A stretch of DNA of 60,467 nt, the filler included. It is 5 parts of 5 records of this genome, joined end to end, with 100 filler letters (N's around TTAATTAATTAA, not from the genome) between each part and the next. Parts side by side here need not be neighbours in the genome. Positions count along the whole stretch, not along the records: positions 6,036 to 14,718 come from SRR22947727_3164; 4 more parts are not named here. The stretch is one strand, 5' to 3'. Of the stretch, positions 6,036 to 33,987 are shown piece by piece (positions within the stretch are counted from its first letter, which is position 1; each line of letters starts with the position of its first letter). Position numbers and translations under genes: made by a program. The notes under the pieces were generated by a model. That model saw only the letters and a list, made by a program, of their open reading frames with translations. It ran no database searches and was not told the origin of the DNA.

Positions 6036-6075
6036 CCAGAAAAATCCCTGGTCCTTTGATCTGCGTGCCCGTCAT
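6036..6075 (-). CDS. First 13 codons of a probable sugar phosphate isomerase/epimerase (xylose-isomerase-like TIM barrel), truncated by the contig end
   Basis: ATG at 6075 overlaps the upstream TGA (TGATG). Translation MTGTQIKGPGIFL matches the recalled IKGP(A/G)IFLAQF N-terminus of this family. Confidence 0.6.
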
Positions 6076-6377
6076 CATACGATCTCGCTGATCATGTTCA
6101 GGTGACGAATATTAACCGCGCAAGCGAGTAACCGATCAAGTTGGCTAAAGAGTGGCTGCAAGTGAGGCATCCCAAAGTGCGCATCCAAATCAGCCTGCGA
6201 TCGCCAATTTTCATAAAATACAAATACGCAATGATCTTGAGCATCAACATGGAAATCATAATTAATGCAGCCCGTTTCTCGGCGAGTTGGAGCAACCTGT
6301 TTACTTAGAAGGGCAAGCAATTCCTCACGGGTTTCAGGTTTAGCCGTGACCGTTCCTATAATTGTGACATGAGACAT
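6075..6377 (-). CDS. ABM family (antibiotic biosynthesis/quinol monooxygenase-like) dimeric alpha-beta barrel protein
   Basis: 100 aa with TR.E.GCINYDFH...FVFYENW...LDAH pattern. Confidence 0.85.
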   Translation of the reverse strand: MSHVTIIGTVTAKPETREELLALLSKQVAPTRRETGCINYDFHVDAQDHCVFVFYENWRSQADLDAHFGMPHLQPLFSQLDRLLACAVNIRHLNMISEIV

Positions 6378-6380
6378 AGC

Positions 6381-7349
6381 TCAAAACCTTTTTTGGCTGA
6401 GGGCAACTGCAAGGATAATGATGCCACCGCGAGCGATCAGTTGCTGGCTAAACTCAAGGCCCATCAAGATCAGACCATTATTGATGAGCCCTATCATCAA
6501 CGCACCAACAATTGTTCCAATCACGGTGCCCTTTCCACCAAAAAGAGAGGTGCCACCCAAAACTGCGGCAGCAATTACCGAAAGCTCATCACCCTCGCCC
6601 AGCTGAAAGCGACCCGACTGCAGTCGGCCTGCATACAACATACCCGCGATAGCAGCTGCGCTAGAGGATAGAACTAGGACGCGAAACTTTACTTGTGCAG
6701 TGTTGATCCCAGAGTAACTGGCCGCCTGTTCTCCGCCCCCGGTTGCTAATACCCGGCGACCAAAACTGGTGCGGCGCAGCAGGAGGTGCCCAATGATACC
6801 AAATAACAGCATCCAAAACAGCAGAACCGGAATAGCACCAATTGAACCCCCTCCGAACCACCAAGCATACCCTTGCGAAAGTATCGGAACCGCTGCAGTA
6901 TCGGACATCCACATTGCGATACCCTTAGCGACACCCATCATTGCAAGTGTTGTCAGGAATGATGGAATGCCGACCTTGGTTGTCAACAAACCGTTGAAAA
7001 TACCTATGGCTATCCCTGTTGCCAACCCTGCTACTATCCCAGCAAAAGGCCCTGCCACAGATATTGCCATTGCAACAGTCACACTCGCAAGCCCAGCAAC
7101 AGCACCAACTGAAAGGTCTATTTCACCTGCCGACAAAACGAATGTCATAGCGACCGCCATCACCGCAATCATTGTTGTCTGGCGGACAATATTAAGTAGA
7201 TTATTTGGGTTCAAAAATCCTCTATCGTTCAGAGTGACCGCAAAAACAACAAAGATTACGACAAAGCCAATATAGATTATATTTTGGCGCCAATTTGCGA
7301 GGAACCACTTGAAAAACGTCGTCACAAGGGTTGTATCAGTGGCTGACAT
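6381..7349 (-). CDS. Sugar ABC transporter permease (RbsC type)
   Basis: GEIDLSVG, IPSFLTTL, FGRRVLATGG..AA..SGI and ELSVIAAAVLGGTSLFGG motifs. AGGAGG RBS before ATG 7349. Confidence 0.92.
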   Translation of the reverse strand: MSATDTTLVTTFFKWFLANWRQNIIYIGFVVIFVVFAVTLNDRGFLNPNNLLNIVRQTTMIAVMAVAMTFVLSAGEIDLSVGAVAGLASVTVAMAISVAGPFAGIVAGLATGIAIGIFNGLLTTKVGIPSFLTTLAMMGVAKGIAMWMSDTAAVPILSQGYAWWFGGGSIGAIPVLLFWMLLFGIIGHLLLRRTSFGRRVLATGGGEQAASYSGINTAQVKFRVLVLSSSAAAIAGMLYAGRLQSGRFQLGEGDELSVIAAAVLGGTSLFGGKGTVIGTIVGALMIGLINNGLILMGLEFSQQLIARGGIIILAVALSQKRF

Positions 7350-8910
7350 GGGAAACCTCCTGCCCTTCAATCAGAGCGTCTTGAATTGCTATCTGCAACC
7401 TTTGTTCTGCGACTTGCAAACGTTGGGTAGCATTTGAATTAATCTCACCTGGATCATCCAAAGCGGTACGTTGGATATCGGAGACGGCACGCCCATCCGC
7501 CATGACGATGATGCGGTCGCATGCACTCAGTAGTTCAGATAGTTCAGACGAAATCATCAAGATAGCCTTTCCCAATGACGCCAAGTCGCGGACCATCTGA
7601 ATTATCTCAGATTTTGATCCAATATCGATGCCTGCCGTGGGCTCATCGAGAACGAAAACATCGGGATTAGCGGCTAACCACTTACCTATAACTACCTTTT
7701 GTTGGTTGCCACCGGACAAGGTGTTGACAGCATGATCACGGCTACCGGTTTTAATTGATAGGTTCCCAATCTGAGCATCAGCCTGGTGACAGATTTCCTT
7801 CAGGTTGACAAAACCAGCACTAGACAATTTATCCAGAACCGCGAGGGTAATGTTATCGGCTACCGAATGATCTGGGATAACTCCTTGGGTCGCGCGTGCT
7901 TCAGGCACCAATGCCACACCAGCGGCAATTGCATCACTTGGACGCCGGATATTAACAGCCTGTTTATTGATTAGAATTTCACCTGAAGTAATCGGTTCTA
8001 TACCTGCTATAAGTTTTGCAAGCGATGTCCGTCCGGAGCCCAATAGACCTGCCAACCCAACAACTTCACCTTTATGGATGCTTAGTGAAATATCACGTGG
8101 CTTATCCCGTCCACAAATACCTCGTAGTTCTAATGCAATATCACCACGAGCAACACTTTTACGTTCAACGTCGGCTAACCCAAGAGAACGTTTGCCAACG
8201 ATATGCTCGATCATCGTGCCAATCGGTAAGTTTTCTATTGGCGCTGTTGTGACATGTTTGCCGTCGCGCAAAATCGTGGCACGATCAGCAATACGGGCAA
8301 TCTCATCCATACGGTGGCTGACGTAAATAACAGCAACTCCGTCAGCTTTCAACTTACGTAAAAGCGTAAACAAACGCTCGACATCCGACACTGCGAGTGC
8401 AGTCGAAGGCTCGTCCAGAATTAATACTCTAGCGTCCTGAGAAATTGCTTTAACAATCTCAGTTAGTTGCTTTTGTCCGGCTCCAAGATTAGCAACAATC
8501 GCAGCCGGATCAATTTCCACTTCAAGTATCTTGAACAAATCAGCCGTTTTACGTTCAGCATCAGTGTCATTTATTAGGCCGTTCGATACTGTTTCTCGGG
8601 TTAAGAATACATTTTGAGCAACGCTCAAAGTCGGGACCAAACTCATTTCCTGATAATTCATAGCAATACCTGCGGCGCGAGACGCCGCGGGCGTATGAAT
8701 TGTAAGCGGGATACCCGCCACCTCGATGGCTCCAGAGTTAGGGACGTGGACTCCGTTTAGAACCTTCAAGATCGTTGATTTACCAGCACCGTTGCCGCCC
8801 AATAGAGCATGAATTTCTCCAGAGAGCACTTCAAAATCAACGTTATCCAATGCTTTAACACCGCCGAAGTGCTTTGAAATACCTTTCATCCGGACGGCAA
8901 CAGTTGACAT
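7336..8910 (-). CDS. Sugar ABC transporter ATP-binding protein (RbsA type, two ABC domains)
   Basis: GGNGAGKST, LILDEP, LSGGNQQK and LDEPTAGID. ATG 8910 overlaps the upstream TGA. Confidence 0.95.
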   Translation of the reverse strand: MSTVAVRMKGISKHFGGVKALDNVDFEVLSGEIHALLGGNGAGKSTILKVLNGVHVPNSGAIEVAGIPLTIHTPAASRAAGIAMNYQEMSLVPTLSVAQNVFLTRETVSNGLINDTDAERKTADLFKILEVEIDPAAIVANLGAGQKQLTEIVKAISQDARVLILDEPSTALAVSDVERLFTLLRKLKADGVAVIYVSHRMDEIARIADRATILRDGKHVTTAPIENLPIGTMIEHIVGKRSLGLADVERKSVARGDIALELRGICGRDKPRDISLSIHKGEVVGLAGLLGSGRTSLAKLIAGIEPITSGEILINKQAVNIRRPSDAIAAGVALVPEARATQGVIPDHSVADNITLAVLDKLSSAGFVNLKEICHQADAQIGNLSIKTGSRDHAVNTLSGGNQQKVVIGKWLAANPDVFVLDEPTAGIDIGSKSEIIQMVRDLASLGKAILMISSELSELLSACDRIIVMADGRAVSDIQRTALDDPGEINSNATQRLQVAEQRLQIAIQDALIEGQEVSHVSH

Positions 8911-10073
8911 CAGATCTGTTCCCACTTGCCAGTTTCACCCGACCGGAGTAATGCGTCCGCGACTTTTTCCGTTAAAAGAGCTTCTTCAAAATTGGGCGAA
9001 GGCTGAGAACCTTCAACGATGGCTTTACAGAAATCGTAGCATTCGATGATCTTGGTTTCGCCATAGCCAATTCCAAGTGCTGGAATAGGCCAAAGCCCCT
9101 CGCCGTAGGGATGCGCAGGACCAGTATAGACCGTACGAAAGCCACGCGCGTCACCTGGATCATCAGCAAACATAACCTGCAACTCATCACGGCGCTCGTA
9201 ATTAAATAGAATTGAACCCTTGGTTCCATGAATTTCCAGAGTAATAAAGTTGTTACGGCCCCAAGCATTTCGGGTGGCCTCAATGCTGCCAATGGCTCCC
9301 GATTTAAAGCGAACCATCGACATAACTTCATCGTCAACATCAACCTCTGAGCGTTCGGCATCAGAGGATTTATTCGACGCGCCTAGCTTGTCAATATTTC
9401 CCTGTTGGATGGGTCGAGTTTTGACGTAAGTGGAGGTTATTGCCTGAACAGTGTCAATTGGACCAACAAGATAGTGAGCCATATCAACAACATGAGTGCC
9501 AATATCGCCAACAGCGCCCGAGCCTGCGATTTCTTTCTGAAAACGCCACGATAACGGACCGTTTGGATCAGCAGACCAATCTTGCAAATAGGTGCCACGG
9601 AAATTGATCACATCGCCGATCTTGCCTTCATCAATGAACTTTTTTGCCAAAGCGACAGCTGGCGTACGGCGATAGTTAAAAGCTACCATTGTTGTGCAGT
9701 TCGAGGCGCGCGCTGCCTCAACCATGGCAACGCTTTCTTTAAGCGTTGAAGCTAAGGGTTTTTCACAAATAACATGCTTTCCCGCCTTTAGCGCTTCTAT
9801 AGCGATCTCTGCATGAGCATTGTTAGGCGTACAGATATCAACAATATCGATATCGGGGCGATTGATGGTAGCTTGCCAATCGCTTGATGCTTCCTCAAAT
9901 CCAAAGCGGTTTCGGGCTTCCTCGGCGGTCTCATCAGTCAGATCGACTACTACTTTTCGATGGGGAACTGCCGGGGCGGGCCAGAAGAACATCGGCATTG
10001 CGGCATAGGCCATGGCATGTGCCTTTCCCATAAAACCGCCGCCAATCATAGCCACGTTCAAAGTCTTGATCAT
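8910..10073 (-). CDS. lgdA: Gfo/Idh/MocA oxidoreductase closely resembling levoglucosan dehydrogenase
   Basis: GGGFMGKAH.MAYAAMPMFFWPAP, CEKPLA, FRGTYLQDWSADP..PLSWRFQK..AGSG..GDI.TH, NYERRDELQV and GFRTVYTGPAHPYGEGLWPIPALGIGYGETKIIE are segments recalled from the characterised Pseudarthrobacter LGDH. Family is certain; substrate is inferred. Confidence 0.8.
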   Translation of the reverse strand: MIKTLNVAMIGGGFMGKAHAMAYAAMPMFFWPAPAVPHRKVVVDLTDETAEEARNRFGFEEASSDWQATINRPDIDIVDICTPNNAHAEIAIEALKAGKHVICEKPLASTLKESVAMVEAARASNCTTMVAFNYRRTPAVALAKKFIDEGKIGDVINFRGTYLQDWSADPNGPLSWRFQKEIAGSGAVGDIGTHVVDMAHYLVGPIDTVQAITSTYVKTRPIQQGNIDKLGASNKSSDAERSEVDVDDEVMSMVRFKSGAIGSIEATRNAWGRNNFITLEIHGTKGSILFNYERRDELQVMFADDPGDARGFRTVYTGPAHPYGEGLWPIPALGIGYGETKIIECYDFCKAIVEGSQPSPNFEEALLTEKVADALLRSGETGKWEQI

Positions 10074-10105
10074 CGGAACACTCCGTAAAAAATTGGAAAG
10101 GGTGA

Positions 10106-10132
10106 CCCTGCGGCAAGCTAGTGCACGCAGGG
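10106..10132 (-). other. Intercistronic stem-loop downstream of the binding-protein gene
   Basis: CCCTGCG...CGCAGGG arms at the position typical of mRNA-stabilising hairpins in ABC operons. Confidence 0.5.
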
Positions 10133-10143
10133 CCTTTTCTAGT

Positions 10144-11262
10144 TTAGTTCATGCTGCTCTGAATATTTTTAGTCGCGTCAGTGCGGTAAACCGTTTTCCA
10201 AGCTTCAAGCAGGTTGTCTTTACTAACCGGTAACGCTGGCAGGGCGACGAAAGCTGGAGCTGTTTTTTCCAAAAGGCCATAACCCGCCAGCATCGCTTCG
10301 GCGACGCCCTGATCAAATGGTCGCTGCGCCCCCAGACCTTTGACGAAGCCACCTTGAGCCATATTAATGGCAACGTTTTCACCTAAGTCGATGGTCGTAA
10401 TTATAAGATCATTACGGCCCGCAACCCGTGCGGCTGAAATAACACCTTCGGCAGGAACGTCCCAAACTGCCCAAATACCATCTATATCAGAACGCGAAGT
10501 AAGCATAGCTGACGCTGCTTTTTCCGCATCTCCAGTGAAATCTGGACCGCCGATGCCCTGCTCAGCAACAATTTCAATATTAGGATAGTTTTCTTCAACA
10601 GTAACTTTGAACGCTTCATATCGCTGACGAGTGACGAAGAAATCTGCTGCATGGAAAACCAAACCGATCTGACCACCTTCTTCACCAAGAGCCTGTGCCA
10701 TCAAATGGGCTGCAGCAACACCATTGCCATAGTTGTCAGCTGAAACAACTGAGATATAATCTACGCCCGCAGTCATACCTGGGGGTGTGTTTTCCATAAA
10801 TACGATCTTCACACCAGCGGCGGCGGCGGCCTTATACGCAGCTGCTGTTGCGGCTGGGTCGGTCGGGACAGACACAATGATGTCAGGTTGGCGTGCCATA
10901 ACTGTTTCGATATCAGCAACCTGCTTTTCAGGTTTAAAACCCGCATCAGTGACAGCAATCACTTCGACACCCATTTCTGCAAACTGAAATTTCAGTCCTT
11001 CGATTTGCGCGCGCGACCAGTCATTACCTCCATAATGCATAACAATCGCTGCAGTGGCATTCATCGCTTTGATTTTCGCAATCTCTGCCGCATTCAAAGA
11101 TAGGTCAGCAGCAGGGCTGGGGTCTTCCCCATTTGGACCTTTGGACAACACGCCTTGTTGAAGCAATGCCAAAGATGCAGCAGGATCTGCAACTGCTGTC
11201 ATACTGCTAAATGCAATTGCCAATGCGGCAATCGAGCCCGTAAGTGCTCTATTTATAAACAT
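10144..11262 (-). CDS. Periplasmic sugar-binding protein (RbsB-like, class I)
   Basis: Signal peptide MFINRALTGSIAALAIAFSSMTAVA; VSADNYGNG and AQRPFDQG motifs; lies in the ABC operon. Confidence 0.92.
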   Translation of the reverse strand: MFINRALTGSIAALAIAFSSMTAVADPAASLALLQQGVLSKGPNGEDPSPAADLSLNAAEIAKIKAMNATAAIVMHYGGNDWSRAQIEGLKFQFAEMGVEVIAVTDAGFKPEKQVADIETVMARQPDIIVSVPTDPAATAAAYKAAAAAGVKIVFMENTPPGMTAGVDYISVVSADNYGNGVAAAHLMAQALGEEGGQIGLVFHAADFFVTRQRYEAFKVTVEENYPNIEIVAEQGIGGPDFTGDAEKAASAMLTSRSDIDGIWAVWDVPAEGVISAARVAGRNDLIITTIDLGENVAINMAQGGFVKGLGAQRPFDQGVAEAMLAGYGLLEKTAPAFVALPALPVSKDNLLEAWKTVYRTDATKNIQSSMN

Positions 11263-11308
11263 TATTATTCTCCCAGAAAATGGGGCGTACCCCGTTAGAA
11301 TGAAGTGA

Positions 11309-12121
11309 TTAAGCTTGTTTAAGGTAGTCTATGCTGGCACGTGCCCCTTGGAGGGGTTCGTCCCAAGCATCCAGTTCCGTGCAGACCCAACCTGCGTAAT
11401 TTGTCTCTCGCATGGCGTTGATGATTACGTCGGTCGACACGTCACCGCGATCTAGCGGTGTGAAAGCAAAAGGATCACGTTGGAGTCCTTTTAAATGAAT
11501 GTAGGAAATACGGTCAGAAAGCTCACGAATGAGCTGTGCCGGATCTCCACCAGCAGCAGCCAAATGGGCTGTATCGGGGCAGAAATCGATGGCTGTTAAA
11601 TCAAAGATACGATGTACTTCTTGAGGTTTTTCGACAATCGTTGAAAGATGCGGATGGTAGTGAGCTGTAAGATTTCGATCATCAGCGATTATTTTCACGC
11701 GATCCAAAGCTGCTCCAAGTTTGTCGTAGTCAGTGTCTCGAACTCCGTCAAAGCGCTTGGCCCCGCCCCCCACTACGAGATGCGGCGCATCCAATTCAGC
11801 AGCCCGATCGGCAGCGCGTGTAATTCGCGCCAGTTCTTCGGGTAAAATTTCGTCAAAAATAAAATTGGCGCCGGAGTACGTCGCAACGAGCGTCAATCCG
11901 TTATTGGCCAGCAGAGCTCGAAAATCAGCAGATTTGTAATCGAGTAAATTGCCATCAAACAATTCAACACCTACATACCCGGCCTCTGCTATCTCGGCGC
12001 AGGCGCGATCGATATCCCCGAAAGTACGATAGCTAAGCTGCGTGATTGAAGTCACACCCTCCGCATTTCCACCGAGGCTCCCCCAGCAATTCGCCTGATA
12101 GGCCAATTTCCATTCGGTCAT
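11309..12121 (-). CDS. Xylose-isomerase-like TIM barrel (sugar phosphate isomerase/epimerase family), candidate LgdB-type 3-keto-sugar eliminase
   Basis: GYVGVELFDGNL, YHPH, FCPDTAHL, YIHLK and GWVCTELD metal motifs; first gene of the lgdA operon. Confidence 0.8.
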   Translation of the reverse strand: MTEWKLAYQANCWGSLGGNAEGVTSITQLSYRTFGDIDRACAEIAEAGYVGVELFDGNLLDYKSADFRALLANNGLTLVATYSGANFIFDEILPEELARITRAADRAAELDAPHLVVGGGAKRFDGVRDTDYDKLGAALDRVKIIADDRNLTAHYHPHLSTIVEKPQEVHRIFDLTAIDFCPDTAHLAAAGGDPAQLIRELSDRISYIHLKGLQRDPFAFTPLDRGDVSTDVIINAMRETNYAGWVCTELDAWDEPLQGARASIDYLKQA

Positions 12122-12144
12122 TTTCTTTTCCTCCAGTCAGCCAA

Positions 12145-12238
12145 TTATGCTGTTGCAATAATGCATAAGTTTTAAAATAAACATTTGTCAATTGTTAAAA
12201 TGCATAAGTATATTATCTTTTGCATTTTATATGCAAAA
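12145..12238. promoter_or_regulatory. Divergent promoter region with candidate operators
   Basis: Direct repeat AATGCATAAGT (12160-12170, 12199-12209) and inverted repeat TTTTGCAT-N5-ATGCAAAA (12218-12238). Confidence 0.55.
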
Positions 12239-12307
12239 CTATAGGCTTGCCATGCAAATTTAACCCCACTATTGTCTTGAAATAAAATAAATGAGAGTGA
12301 TAATTTC

Positions 12308-13675
12308 GTGGAAACAGACAAAGAAAACGCGAATCACGGCAAAACTAAAGGGCGACCACGTAACAGTGAGACTGCCACTTCAAGCCTTGTGGAAGTTCTA
12401 AACCTCGTACGTTTGGGCCATGCCACAACCCGTCAAGAACTCGAACGAGTCGGTGAATATGGCCGCGCAATTATTGCTGATAGACTGTTAACACTGAAAG
12501 ACTTGGGCTTAGTTGACGAAAGCGAAACCGGCGTTGCAACAGGAGGTCGAGCACCACGCCTTGTCCGGTTGATGCAAGACAAAGGACGCTTAGCAGTCGT
12601 CACTTTAGATCAATCGGCAGTGGGTGTGGGCTTTGCTGACCTCAGCGGAAAATTAATATCTGAACATCATGAAATAATCGATATAACAAACCAAACAGTT
12701 ACTGTTGAAAGGGTCTGTGCGCTTATAAATTGGATGCTGTCACGCCAAACGGTCCAAGCAGATTTTTGGGGAATTTCAATTTCAGTTCCTGGCCCGGTGA
12801 TTGCAAACCCCAGCTCTTCATTCTTAACACAAACGCCGGATTTTTTACCTAACTGGGATAAGTCGAAACTTATTGAAGAACTTACGTCACGTTTTAAAGC
12901 GCCAGTTTGGATGCATTCCAATGTTGAAACAATGACAATGGGGGAATTGCACGGCGGCGCGGGCATTGACCAGCAATCAATGCTGTTTGTCAAAGTGGGG
13001 CAGCGTATTGCCGCCAGCTTGGTCAATGAGGGCGAAGCTTATCATGGCGCCGCTGGTGCTGTCGGTCTGATCGGGCACTTACCTGTCACGTACAATGGTA
13101 ATACCGGCACCTTAGACGCGATGGCCGGTGCGGAAATGATTAAAACACGTGGAATTGCAGCTGCGGAATCTGGTGAGAGTGATCAATTGTCTTCAATTCT
13201 CTCACGTGAAGGCGGGTTGACTGAGATTGATGTATGTCAGGCAGCTCAAATGGGTGATAAAATAAGTACAGATATTATAGTTCAAAGTGGACGTTTAATT
13301 GGTGGGGTACTTGCTACCTTGACCAATATGCTCAATCCACAGCTGATCGTACTCGCAGGATCGATTGCTCAAACAAACGACATTCTGTTAGCAAGTGTCC
13401 GAGAGGCAGTATACGGCGCGTCACACCCTTTAGTTACTCGTGATCTGCGTATTCTAAGATCTCAAATGAGCGGCTCTGCTGCCCTTTTAGGTGCAGCAAC
13501 TATCGGCGTGGAAGCACTTTTTGCACCATCTTTTCTAAAAGACTGGATAATATTAGGGACCCCAACAGAACATCCAGATTTCAAGTCAGAATTGGAAGTT
13601 CATGACAACAAAGTAACGCACTCTGTCGATGTGCCACCGCCACCACCAAAAAATGTTGGAAGGAGACACGTATGA
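12308..13675 (+). CDS. ROK family transcriptional regulator (NagC/XylR-like)
   Basis: N-terminal wHTH with TGGRAP, ISVPGPV, G.AG.IGH and NMLNPQLIVLAG; divergent from the catabolic operon. Confidence 0.9.
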   Translation: METDKENANHGKTKGRPRNSETATSSLVEVLNLVRLGHATTRQELERVGEYGRAIIADRLLTLKDLGLVDESETGVATGGRAPRLVRLMQDKGRLAVVTLDQSAVGVGFADLSGKLISEHHEIIDITNQTVTVERVCALINWMLSRQTVQADFWGISISVPGPVIANPSSSFLTQTPDFLPNWDKSKLIEELTSRFKAPVWMHSNVETMTMGELHGGAGIDQQSMLFVKVGQRIAASLVNEGEAYHGAAGAVGLIGHLPVTYNGNTGTLDAMAGAEMIKTRGIAAAESGESDQLSSILSREGGLTEIDVCQAAQMGDKISTDIIVQSGRLIGGVLATLTNMLNPQLIVLAGSIAQTNDILLASVREAVYGASHPLVTRDLRILRSQMSGSAALLGAATIGVEALFAPSFLKDWIILGTPTEHPDFKSELEVHDNKVTHSVDVPPPPPKNVGRRHV

Positions 13676-14682
13676 CAATTGTCGGACTTGGACCCCATGG
13701 CGAAAGAGCATCGCCCCCAGAACGAGTGACCCTGTTGCCTCAAGATATTGAAACAGCACGTACAAAAAAATTGCGTGTGGCAATTGTTATGCACACGGTT
13801 ACCAGCGACTGGGCTAATCATCTTGTACAGGGAATTGTTGGCTTGCTGGGAGAATGCGGCGCGATTGTCATTGAGGTAGTAGATTGCGCTTTTTCATCAG
13901 ACGTACAAATTGCCGCTCTCAATCGCCTTCGCGAAGAAGCTCCAGATGCTATCATTTCACTTCCCGTGGACAACACCACGGTGGCCGATGCCCACCGTGC
14001 AATTTCTCGCGCTGGCATTAAACTGGTCTTAATCGACAACGTCCCGACCGGAATGCTTCCGGGAAAAGACTATGTTTCCCTCGTTTCTGCCGATAATTAC
14101 GGCTTGGGAAAAATCGCCGCAGAACTTTTGTCGTCTCATTTACCACAAAACTCGACCGCAGGATTGCTCGGCTATGATGCAGATTTCTTCGCAGCGAATG
14201 AACGCGAAATAGCTTTTATTCACTGGATGGAAATAAACCGGCCAGACGTCACTATCAAAACTGCAAGGTTTGCTTCTATTGAGCATGCTGGAAATGACGC
14301 GGAACGGCTGATTGATGACACATCAGGCATTTCAGGACTGTTTGTAGTTTGGGATACACCATGTGTTGATGTGATCAGAAAGCTATCAAAACGTAATCTC
14401 ACATTACCAATATCAACGGTCGACCTCGGTCAGGAAGTAACAATAAATCTTGCACAAGGGGGCAATATAATTGGAATTTCCAGCCAACGCCCGTTTCAGC
14501 AAGGCGAGACTGCAGCAAAAACTATAATCACATCTCTTCTGGATCGGGGATGCCCAGATTGGGTTGCACTTCCAGGATTAAAAGTTTCAAGTTCAAATGT
14601 TATTGAAAGTTACCAGTTTATTTGGCGCAAACCTGCTCCAATGGATATATTGAGTGAATTAAACATCACAAAAACAAAATGA
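13672..14682 (+). CDS. Sugar-binding-protein paralogue lacking a signal peptide (probably cytoplasmic)
   Basis: Collinear with the mature part of 10144..11262; ATGA overlap with the ROK stop; AGGAG RBS at 13661. Confidence 0.85.
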   Translation: MTIVGLGPHGERASPPERVTLLPQDIETARTKKLRVAIVMHTVTSDWANHLVQGIVGLLGECGAIVIEVVDCAFSSDVQIAALNRLREEAPDAIISLPVDNTTVADAHRAISRAGIKLVLIDNVPTGMLPGKDYVSLVSADNYGLGKIAAELLSSHLPQNSTAGLLGYDADFFAANEREIAFIHWMEINRPDVTIKTARFASIEHAGNDAERLIDDTSGISGLFVVWDTPCVDVIRKLSKRNLTLPISTVDLGQEVTINLAQGGNIIGISSQRPFQQGETAAKTIITSLLDRGCPDWVALPGLKVSSSNVIESYQFIWRKPAPMDILSELNITKTK

Positions 14683-14684
14683 CT

Positions 14685-14718
14685 GGTGCTGTCAAACGAA
14701 TGAGAACTCGCATCAGAT
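14685..14718 (-). mobile_element. Possible right end of an IS6-family element, cut by the contig end
   Basis: GGTGCTGTCAAACGAATGAGAACTCG resembles recalled alphaproteobacterial IS6 termini (GGYRCTGTCA...). The minus strand reads L-M-R-V-L-I-R-L-T-A-P. Only 34 nt are visible. Confidence 0.45.
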
Positions 14719-14818: not shown

Positions 14819-14819
14819 A

Positions 14820-14881
14820 TGCGCCCGCCCAGGCAGGCACTGCCCTCATTTCGTGTTGAGATGGTGTTATGCAGATGTCTT
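14820..14881 (-). mobile_element. Partial second copy of the MITE-like element at 33847-33968
   Basis: Reverse complement matches 33847-33908 at 54 of 62 positions without gaps (manual alignment); lies at the contig start. Confidence 0.8.
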
Positions 14882-19490: not shown

Positions 19491-21029
19491 ATGCAGATAG
19501 AAGATTACGATAAACCCGCTGAACTGAGATTGATCGAAGCCTGCCGCAACGGGTACGATACAATATTCGGTATGGAACGGCCCGAAAAGGGCAGTGCCGA
19601 CAACACCATCCGCGCCGGGCTGATCCGGGCGCTCTTGCTCGGCACCGGCGATTGCACCCTCCCGGCCCGCGGGCTGGGGATTGAAGGTGCATGGATCACC
19701 GGCAAGCTGGATCTTGCGGACGAGGCCCTGCCGGTGCCGCTGGGGCTGATACATTGCACCCTTGAAGAGGATATCGTGCTGCGCGATTGCACCCTTCCCG
19801 CGCTCTACATGCCCGGCACTCATTTGCCCAAACTGAATGCGCAACGCCTGCAGTGCAACGGGTCGCTGCATCTGTCAGATGGATTTCAAGCGACCGGTCT
19901 GGTCGATCTGGTCGGAGCAGAGATTGACGGGCAGCTGTCCTGCAACGGCGGCAAGTTTTTGGCAGAGCGTAAGGCGCTGAACTGCAGTGCCGTAACAGTT
20001 GGGTCGGATGTGGTTTTATCGGGCGAATTTGACGCCCGGAGGAGGATCTTTCTGAACCGGTTTGAAGCCCGGGGCAGGATAGATCTGAACCGGGCGGAGA
20101 TTGCCGGAAATTTGCAGATATCCGGTGCCACCCTTAACACGGGTTTAGATGCTCAAGGGATGCGGGTGCGGGCCGGGTTTTTCTGGCGGAATGTAACGGG
20201 TGACGGGATCGAGGTTGATTTAATCGACGCCCATGTTGGCACCCTGGTTGATGGTCCCGGCTCTTGGCAGTCTGTGAAGATGCTGCGCCTGTCCTCCTTT
20301 CGCTATGACCGGATCGAAAGCGACGTGGATGTGCAGGAACGCTTGGACTGGCTGGCCAAACATGACGCTTCTGTGCGCCCGTTCACCCCGCAACCCTTTG
20401 TGCAACTGTCCAATGTCTTGCGCCGACAGGGGATGATTTCTGCGGTCAATACTGTGATGATCAAGCGCGAAGATCTTCAGCGCGACGCAGATATGGAACA
20501 AGCCGTTCAAGGAAATGAATGGTGGGGGTTGTTTGCGCTGGTCATGTTGCTTCGCCCGTTCCTAAGCCTGCCTTTCAAATGGATGTTCGGATATGGTCAC
20601 CGGCCCGCGTGGGTGTTGCTTTGGATCGCCGGTATCTTGATAATCACCGCCGCTTTTGCCCAGAAAATCCACATCCACGGGCAGTTTGCGCCGACCTCCT
20701 CGGTTGTCTTGACCTCGCAGGACTGGCTGGACAGTTTCCCAACGGAGCCCCTCCACCCCGACTCGCCGCTCTGGCGCGCGCAGATGGACGCTTGGGCTCA
20801 GACCACATCCGGGCGCGACTACACAAGCTTTAGCGCCTTTCTCTATGCGCTCGATTTATTTATCCCGCTGGATGCTTTGGGGCAGGAAAAAAATTGGGCG
20901 CCCTCAGCCGAACGGGGCTGGTGGGGCGAATGGGGCCACCGGCTGCGCTGGCTTGTGCAAATGGCCGGCTGGGTGATTACAGCCATAGGCGCGGCGGTGG
21001 TCACCGGGTTGATCGGTCGGCGGGATTGA
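19491..21029 (+). CDS. Hypothetical membrane protein: N-terminal beta-solenoid-like repeats and a C-terminal TM/pore-helix-like domain
   Basis: Repeated G.(V/I/L)DL..A(E)I.G.L pattern; C-terminal FGYGHRP..., YALDLFIPL..LGQ...W and GW...A..TGL. Confidence 0.75.
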   Translation: MQIEDYDKPAELRLIEACRNGYDTIFGMERPEKGSADNTIRAGLIRALLLGTGDCTLPARGLGIEGAWITGKLDLADEALPVPLGLIHCTLEEDIVLRDCTLPALYMPGTHLPKLNAQRLQCNGSLHLSDGFQATGLVDLVGAEIDGQLSCNGGKFLAERKALNCSAVTVGSDVVLSGEFDARRRIFLNRFEARGRIDLNRAEIAGNLQISGATLNTGLDAQGMRVRAGFFWRNVTGDGIEVDLIDAHVGTLVDGPGSWQSVKMLRLSSFRYDRIESDVDVQERLDWLAKHDASVRPFTPQPFVQLSNVLRRQGMISAVNTVMIKREDLQRDADMEQAVQGNEWWGLFALVMLLRPFLSLPFKWMFGYGHRPAWVLLWIAGILIITAAFAQKIHIHGQFAPTSSVVLTSQDWLDSFPTEPLHPDSPLWRAQMDAWAQTTSGRDYTSFSAFLYALDLFIPLDALGQEKNWAPSAERGWWGEWGHRLRWLVQMAGWVITAIGAAVVTGLIGRRD

Positions 21030-33733: not shown

Positions 33734-33846
33734 AATCTAGCACACGCGGCCTTCGCCTCATGACGGAGGATTTTGGAATTCTCATTTAGACTTGCCCAAC
33801 GACAACCCAGCCGCGCTTCGCGCGCGCAGGAGCGAGATGTGGTAAA

Positions 33847-33968
33847 AAGACCTCTGCATAACGCCAGTTCAACATGAAATGAGGGCAGCGCCGGCCTGGG
33901 CAGGCGCAGCCCGGTGTGGCCACCAGGCATAATGTTTTGGCTTGACGGCAAGGTTATGCGGAGGTCTT
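33847..33968. mobile_element. ~122-bp MITE-like element with 16-bp terminal inverted repeats
   Basis: AAGACCTCTGCATAAC (33847-33862) and GTTATGCGGAGGTCTT (33953-33968), one mismatch. No coding capacity. Partial second copy at 14820-14881. Confidence 0.75.
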
Positions 33969-33987
33969 AAAAGCCCAAAGGGGCCGA

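Follow-up and report, generated by a model that had tools for sequence, protein, structure and literature searches.

Can a bacterium of the open ocean take up and degrade levoglucosan? This sugar, formed when plants burn, serves as a biomass-burning tracer in aerosols, ice, and sediments, and its possible use by a marine bacterium is raised by one gene cluster in a DNA stretch of 60,467 nucleotides (the window), which is made up of five contigs with N spacers. The cluster, here called the lgd locus, is exactly one of these contigs, positions 6036-14718 (8,683 bp). Judging from gene families and synteny, the contig very probably constitutes an 8.6-kb cassette of alphaproteobacterial type for the uptake and catabolism of levoglucosan, in a strain of Planktomarina. 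Open reading frame (ORF) calls, Pfam, and NCBIfam identified eight complete genes, all with intact ORFs, and a ninth gene of which the 14 initial codons are present. In order of transcription from the minus strand, the operon comprises lgdB1, a binding protein gene, lgdA, genes for an ATPase, a permease, and an ABM protein, and the start of a hydratase gene, with a ROK regulator gene diverging from it. An earlier note, based on the letters of the window, had given the same genes in the same order; its inventory was incomplete in one respect, as a binding-protein paralogue gene at 13672-14682, inside the region that it described, had been left unlisted.

The assignment centers on the Gfo/Idh/MocA-type oxidoreductase encoded at 8910-10073 (minus strand), which has the Pfam GFO_IDH_MocA and C-terminal domains. 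The protein scored 711.5 bits over residues 3-387 against the NCBIfam levoglucosan dehydrogenase model NF052479, which is of equivalog type and has a curated whole-protein cut-off of 650; the next-best family, inositol 2-dehydrogenase, reached 140.5 bits, under its cut-off of 355. Against PDB chain 6a3f, the levoglucosan dehydrogenase (LGDH) of Pseudarthrobacter phenanthrenivorans, the match had an E value of 1.1e-174. The two peptide segments that the earlier note had attributed to a characterized levoglucosan dehydrogenase are both present in the protein and both identical in this chain. Identity was 65.8% to LgdA of P. phenanthrenivorans H3 and 43-46% to the nearest non-LgdA relatives. Residues E104, K105, and H194 were invariant in a 16-row alignment (A1) and correspond to the Glu and His (E103 and H193) given as catalytic by Kaur et al. 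2023; these columns do not discriminate LgdA, since the outgroups in the alignment share them. The oxidoreductase is thus assigned as LgdA by family membership and would, by homology, oxidize levoglucosan at C3 with nicotinamide adenine dinucleotide (NAD+). Standard annotation with the NCBI model would already give the gene this name.

Alignment with LGDH and placement in a Gfo/Idh/MocA tree had been proposed as checks on the first identification, and both agreed with it, giving 66% identity to the P. phenanthrenivorans enzyme and a position within the LgdA group. The maximum likelihood tree contained 24 rows selected by us from more than 100 loci; most low-identity loci were omitted, as was Paenibacillus cisolokensis L070, whose translation at the tblastn coordinates contained three stop codons and which was also left out of A1. 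The window LgdA fell in a starred three-row clade with a complete reference genome (G001) and a Yoonia metagenome-assembled genome (MAG), with support of 100/100, nested in a starred eight-row alphaproteobacterial clade (100/99). The latter clade is in turn nested in a 19-row group that includes the Pseudarthrobacter and Paenarthrobacter enzymes and received 85/91, under the star threshold, and the rows with 43-46% identity, together with one G001 paralogue, fell outside this group. As a separate observation, the gut Lachnospiraceae Blautia hominis (L026) and Robinsoniella peoriensis (L028) each carry two LgdA-like genes per locus, with 58-63% identity to the window protein, and these genes occupy two separate starred clades.

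The second enzyme is a TIM barrel of 270 amino acids encoded at 11309-12121 on the minus strand (PF01261, E 2.9e-30). Its best match adjoins lgdA in all five named lgdA-bearing genomes that were searched (P. phenanthrenivorans H3, a Paenarthrobacter, a Shinella MAG, a Bacillus, and Pseudoroseicyclus) at 47-74% identity, with 51% to the counterpart in the P. phenanthrenivorans locus. Neither a close solved relative nor a curated model was found for this protein, the best PDB match being IolE (1.5e-10). According to Kaur et al. 2023, the LgdB1 cluster has about 275 residues, a size that the window protein fits, and is present in 253 of 265 lgdA neighborhoods. Synteny and size support the view that this TIM barrel behaves as an LgdB1 orthologue.

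Uptake would be served by an ATP-binding cassette (ABC) importer of the ribose/arabinose type, whose Peripla_BP_4 protein, BPD_transp_2 permease, and fused ATPase with two ABC domains are encoded together in the operon. The solute-binding protein (10144-11262, minus strand; Peripla_BP_4, E 3.5e-41) has a hydrophobic N-terminal signal peptide, as read from the sequence, and is 64-65% identical to its counterparts in the Paenarthrobacter and P. phenanthrenivorans lgd loci; it is presumed to be a periplasmic levoglucosan receptor. Kaur et al. 2023 report that levoglucosan induces binding proteins of this type. The ATPase (7336-8925, minus strand; two stretches of Pfam ABC_tran, E 5.1e-52) is AraG- and XylG-like and under the cut-offs of these models, and the permease (6381-7370, minus strand; BPD_transp_2, E 7.4e-37), which is 87% identical to the G001 permease, has its top NCBIfam matches to AraH, GguB, and RbsC, each likewise under cut-off. 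Because all equivalog models scored under cut-off, the importer substrate is not among the known modeled sugars. The accessory ABM-fold protein of 100 amino acids (6075-6377, minus strand; Pfam ABM, E 5e-17) matched the LsrG model at 6.3e-05, far under its cut-off, and its PDB relatives are uncharacterized ABM proteins. Its gene sits after the permease gene in seven of eight alphaproteobacterial loci of the same type.

In order to establish the host, the window was compared with G001, a near-conspecific complete genome of 3.3 Mb in a single contig, in which 48% of the words sampled from the window recur. The third contig of the window was 97-99% identical to G001, and the LptD encoded on it showed 86-89% identity to those of four MAGs, of which three bear the name Planktomarina, and 96% identity to that of a Rhodobacteraceae isolate (five loci). 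The host was therefore assigned to Planktomarina, within the Roseobacter RCA cluster, which is described as one of the major Roseobacter lineages in oceans from temperate to polar latitudes. G001 carries the whole lgd locus in the same order at 1,309,132-1,317,693, inside a stretch whose GC content (0.44-0.54) is lower than that of the flank before it (0.56-0.65). The lgd contig ends in a dispersed repeat of 34 nucleotides (14685-14718), which occurs once in the window and matches G001 at 38 further positions, including the syntenic site behind the paralogue gene.

The GC content of the lgd contig (0.476) lies below that of the core contigs (three at 0.54-0.57; the last contig is at 0.494), and spacers flank it on both sides; these features would fit a contaminating or wrongly binned contig of non-marine origin. 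This explanation was rejected and is regarded as highly improbable, since the complete G001 genome holds the same locus, likewise low in GC, the end repeat recurs in G001 (38 further matches), and near-identical copies occur in seawater, marine, and salt marsh runs. The earlier suggestion of a marine alphaproteobacterial host, which had been left as unproven, is thereby supported by the G001 synteny, the end repeat, the Planktomarina core-gene matches, and the seawater copies.

Occurrence in natural samples was examined in sequencing runs labeled seawater, marine, salt marsh, or plainly metagenome; the source sample itself may be among the DNA runs. The fraction of words sampled from the contig that recurred was 0.94-0.95 in 13 DNA runs from four studies and 0.58-0.83 in six RNA runs from five studies; runs X20-X23 contained next to none of these words and are uninformative about absence. 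Contig-level mapping was performed for four runs, one DNA and three RNA libraries. A seawater DNA contig of 8,747 nucleotides spans 6036-14684 with 11 differences, and contigs from the RNA libraries of three studies span most of the operon. The stretch 12142-12295 is bridged by the DNA contig and by no RNA-library contig among those listed. In run X17 the operon contigs had depths of 15-33 and the regulator-side contigs 1-5. This contrast and the stretches without RNA-library contigs are no more than hints, as contig depth cannot rank genes. The RNA-library contigs are consistent with transcription of the operon in nature.

Two differences at the regulator end of the contig were also observed. 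At 13648, near the proline-rich C-terminus of ROK, contigs of three of the four mapped runs are without three bases of the window. After 14684, contigs of three runs (one DNA, two RNA) carry a different, AT-rich sequence, and the junction with the 34-nucleotide repeat may be strain-variable or an assembly join; metagenome depth in the bin of the end repeat was approximately 2,000, compared with approximately 46 elsewhere.

The opposite end of the contig bears on whether the pathway is complete. The start codon of the ninth gene overlaps the ABM stop codon (ATGA), and its 14 codons, read on the minus strand from 6078 to 6036 and ending at the contig edge, encode MMTGTQIKGPGIFL. This peptide matches the N-termini of a G001 protein of 352 amino acids, of a gene in the Yoonia MAG (L031), and of three further homologues of the genus; the start of a second TIM-barrel gene, as proposed earlier, is therefore real and matches a hydratase family. 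Beyond the ABM gene, the G001 operon encodes this 352-residue TIM barrel (E 2.6e-169 to PDB 8ro4, 2-hydroxy-3-keto-glucal hydratase) and then a 383-residue Gfo/Idh/MocA protein (E 2.2e-169 to PDB 3v5n), and hydratase and reductase genes lie downstream in G001, the Yoonia MAG, and Amaricoccus. With this hydratase-reductase pair added, all four steps of the Bacillus smithii type are encoded in the relatives, and in the window only those up to the contig edge. Because the hydratase and reductase would lie beyond that edge, completeness of the pathway in the window strain is judged from its relatives. The G001 Gfo protein is only 30-31% identical to the genes in the LgdC position of actinobacterial loci, and it is accordingly regarded as an analogue of LgdC, not an orthologue; given this low identity, its role as the final reductase rests on an Agrobacterium-type neighborhood.

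A truncated operon with its last two steps missing could also be an inactive remnant. Only 14 codons of the hydratase gene precede the contig end, and searches with the G001 hydratase and reductase (tblastn) gave no match in the other four contigs of the window. Nevertheless, a remnant is very unlikely: the eight complete ORFs are intact, the operon is covered by RNA-library contigs of three studies, and the break coincides with an assembly branch in independent metagenome contigs, with neither a stop codon nor a deletion. The seawater DNA contig likewise stops at 6036, and a second upstream context was found at the loose end at 6065, where contigs of two runs diverge beyond their shared first 30 bases. 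As an independent contig ends there and alternative upstream sequences exist, the break at 6036 is taken as a branch in the population and not as the end of a gene. Furthermore, LgdB1 is the sole LgdB-type gene in 126 of 265 lgdA neighborhoods according to Kaur et al. 2023.

Comparison among strains indicated that the locus is variable and exchanged. At the DNA level, the window cassette is 71.2% identical to the G001 copy and 71.7% identical to the Yoonia MAG copy, and the latter two are mutually 91.4% identical over 8.6 kb. In the LgdA tree, G001 accordingly pairs with the Yoonia MAG (99/94), with the window sequence excluded. The 71% nucleotide identity to the G001 copy, compared with 97-99% for the core, indicates horizontal exchange of the cassette. 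An LgdA above cut-off was found in one of 23 genomes of the G001 genus (one of 13 among those at least 90% complete), so that the cassette is strain-variable; in the family sample it occurred in 13 of 401 genomes, or in 14 of 401 at E 1e-150 or better. The hydratase was found in four of the 23 genus genomes, three of which are without an LgdA match. The similarity between G001 and the Yoonia MAG stops past the ABM gene, where protein identity is 60% for the hydratase and 53% for the reductase, and the unit from the paralogue gene to the ABM gene is the extent of the window contig. From these boundaries, the unit appears to behave as a mobile cassette between roseobacter lineages, able to adjoin a hydratase-reductase module.

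An LgdA motif scan of genome contigs returned at least 120 stretches, 80 of them listed, and represents a sample and not a census. The listed Rhodobacterales, classed by name, include Amaricoccus, Pseudoroseicyclus, Histidinibacterium, Rubellimicrobium, and Boseongicola, and the listed matches also include gut Lachnospiraceae as well as freshwater MAGs of Rhodoluna and Planktophila. Scattered over such taxa, lgdA is widespread but sporadic. Among the same listed matches, the freshwater occurrences comprise loci L108, L114, L139, L171, L161, and L176 of Rhodoluna and Candidatus Planktophila MAGs, and a full lgd-type operon is encoded at one Rhodoluna locus (L023); the levoglucosan trait may extend to abundant bacterioplankton of lakes.

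This distribution also bears on the substrate. The enzymes could be as assigned, with the sugar encountered in seawater being another biological anhydro-sugar or a 3-keto-glycoside degraded by the same chemistry. The link to fire is not obvious for the gut and freshwater bacteria that carry the motif among the listed matches, the hydratase is closest to an Agrobacterium enzyme of a general glycoside 3-dehydrogenase pathway, and three genus genomes encode it without an LgdA match. A substrate other than levoglucosan is nonetheless considered unlikely, because LgdA passes a curated model at the equivalog level and because LgdA, LgdB1, and the binding protein are kept together across phyla, being 66%, 51%, and 65% identical, respectively, to their P. 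phenanthrenivorans H3 counterparts. Species of genera with such loci are also reported as levoglucosan degraders by Kaur et al. 2023. A fire origin of levoglucosan in the sea would be an ecological extrapolation.

In order to gain insight into control of the operon, the two divergent genes and the region before them were analyzed. The ROK regulator of 455 amino acids (12308-13675, plus strand; Pfam ROK, E 1.9e-30, residues 111-399) is NagC- and Mlc-like, with these models aligning from residue 41-62 on and far under their cut-offs. The start of the paralogue gene (13672-14682, plus strand; Peripla_BP_4, E 3e-24) overlaps the ROK stop codon. It encodes a protein of 336 amino acids without a signal peptide, which would therefore be cytoplasmic, and is 34-36% identical to the binding protein of the transporter. 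No specific name for it was found in the protein atlas, only generic ones. The ROK gene adjoins lgdB1, and is paired with the paralogue gene, in all eight alphaproteobacterial loci of the same type, the paired genes overlapping by 4 bases or lying approximately 10 bases apart. Of the 401 family genomes, 15 encode a close orthologue of the paralogue (E no higher than 1e-141), namely all 14 LgdA-positive genomes and one of the 387 others, and in 12 of the 14 the orthologue is on the contig of lgdA, 2.5-3.8 kb away.

Structure prediction of a ROK-paralogue complex gave a median score of 0.78 (0.78, 0.01, 0.78), with a best value of 0.00 among three controls. Among solved complexes, 51 of 78 attained the mark used for this score, as did two of 108 mismatched pairs. 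Agreement between the runs covers at least 17% of contacts, and the predicted local distance difference test score (pLDDT) of the partner is 85 or higher. In the predicted interface, the N-terminal motif of the paralogue (residues 4-18), which is invariant in all eight orthologues, contacts ROK residues 116-123 and 386-390, and the contacting residues include several invariant columns. Binding of the paralogue to ROK is thus predicted from modeling.

The divergent control region (12122-12307) contains a perfect inverted repeat at 12218-12238, with 8-nucleotide arms (100% complementary) and a spacing of 5 nucleotides. In an alignment of seven loci from different genera, this palindrome and an adjacent TTGAC box fall in conserved blocks. 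Scans of sigma-70 promoters and terminators were at the level of chance (13 compared with 12.2 expected, and 9 compared with 10.0 expected, respectively). ROK may bind the palindrome, and the paralogue may report imported levoglucosan to ROK. Proteins of the ROK family typically have a cysteine-rich zinc motif after a GH motif. In the window ROK this motif was not found, the protein having two cysteines and none after G-H at 256-257; its zinc motif thus seems to be absent, which fits sugar sensing via a partner. The pair resembles Mlc, a ROK repressor that is held by a protein partner, the glucose transporter, in that a DNA-binding ROK protein would be set by a sugar-sensing protein, a relationship that for the window pair is a prediction. 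In contrast to Mlc, ROK would here be partnered by a soluble version of the transporter's binding protein located in the cytoplasm, and we know of no described case of such a regulatory pair.

Taken together, the genes outline a putative route from seawater to glucose. The periplasmic binding protein would catch levoglucosan and the ABC transporter would import it, after which LgdA would oxidize C3 with NAD+ and LgdB1 would open the 1,6-anhydro ring by beta-elimination. The hydratase and an expected Gfo-type reductase would then convert 2-hydroxy-3-keto-glucal to 3-keto-glucose and glucose, and ROK, with the cytoplasmic paralogue as ligand sensor, would control expression from the divergent region. 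The sequence data show the gene content, family memberships, synteny, host, strain variability, and horizontal exchange of the cassette and its presence in marine DNA and RNA libraries, and from these the substrate, the enzyme activities, the mechanism of the regulator, and the ecological source of the sugar are inferred. Several points weigh against this account. Support for the 19-row LgdA group is sub-threshold and one sequence of 61% identity weakly joins an outgroup; the genes of the last two steps are not on the window contigs, and the reductase of G001 is distant from actinobacterial LgdC. The RNA-library contigs are no proof of transcription, as DNA may be present in such libraries. 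For the regulatory pair, one of three runs gave 0.01, the prediction did not use orthologue alignments, and seven of 44 blind-drawn neighbor genes also passed in a test of the procedure. Although the assignment of the cassette itself is considered very probable, a broader proposal falls somewhat short of an even chance, namely that some Planktomarina strains carry and express the exchanged cassette and use levoglucosan, with ROK reading the sugar via a cytoplasmic binding-protein copy as an undescribed type of regulator.

Relative to known systems, the locus resembles that of P. phenanthrenivorans (LGDH structures PDB 6a3f-6a3j) in its LgdA family, LgdB1-like neighbor, and sugar ABC transporter. 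The gene order differs, and the alphaproteobacterial type adds ROK, the cytoplasmic paralogue, and the ABM protein; moreover, P. phenanthrenivorans is a soil isolate, whereas the present host is a pelagic marine bacterium. With the four-step route of B. smithii S-2701M (lgdA-lgdB1-lgdB2-lgdC), as described by Kuritani et al. 2020 (PMC7676230), the locus compared by description shares the logic of oxidation, beta-elimination, hydration, and reduction to glucose, but hydration here would be performed by an Agrobacterium-type hydratase. The glycoside operon of Agrobacterium tumefaciens (PMC10628242) contains a pair of hydratase and Gfo/Idh/MocA protein as in the G001 locus, and its authors compared their pathway with a levoglucosan operon. 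In Agrobacterium the first two steps are performed by a flavin adenine dinucleotide-type glycoside dehydrogenase and an O-glycoside eliminase, whereas LgdA and LgdB1 would take these steps here.

The pathway, the LgdA family, and its spread are already known. Kaur et al. 2023 place the family in Firmicutes, Actinobacteria, and Proteobacteria, with ABC transporters and ROK-type regulators in the gene neighborhoods, and the degraders with a studied pathway are isolates from soil, compost, and wastewater (Kaur et al. 2023; PMC7676230). A literature search, outside which most subscription journals lay, found nothing linking levoglucosan to roseobacters or bacterioplankton. Likewise, judged by listings, no degradation of levoglucosan by marine bacteria was found, and the MAG papers concerned soil, horse gut, and software. 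What is added here is the ecological reach of the system and the predicted ROK-sensor pair.

If the proposal holds, anhydro-sugar, whether fire-derived or otherwise produced, would be a real substrate of open-water bacterioplankton. The fate of levoglucosan in seawater bears on the interpretation of the tracer and on the turnover of fire-derived carbon, and the near-identical cassette in seawater metagenomes and RNA libraries could serve as a gene marker for marine levoglucosan use. Planktomarina, as a culturable genus, offers a test organism for marine levoglucosan turnover. Furthermore, the cassette is a clear example of gene exchange among roseobacter genera, and the predicted pair of ROK and binding-protein paralogue would be a new and testable regulatory arrangement.

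Several further features of the window were observed outside the lgd locus. The contigs do not follow chromosomal order, contig 3 corresponding to 1.896-1.916 Mb of G001 and the lgd contig to 1.309-1.318 Mb. Within contig 3, approximately 530 bases (19900-20430) are only 83% identical to G001, compared with 97-99% in the surroundings. A second repeat family of approximately 63-125 nucleotides occurs at 14819-14881, at the start of contig 3, and at approximately 33845-33970, with dozens of copies on both strands of G001; contig ends of this assembly coincide with such repeats. Finally, toward the end of the last contig (56000-60467) the GC content falls to 0.39-0.45, compared with approximately 0.55 elsewhere, and this segment may be another island.

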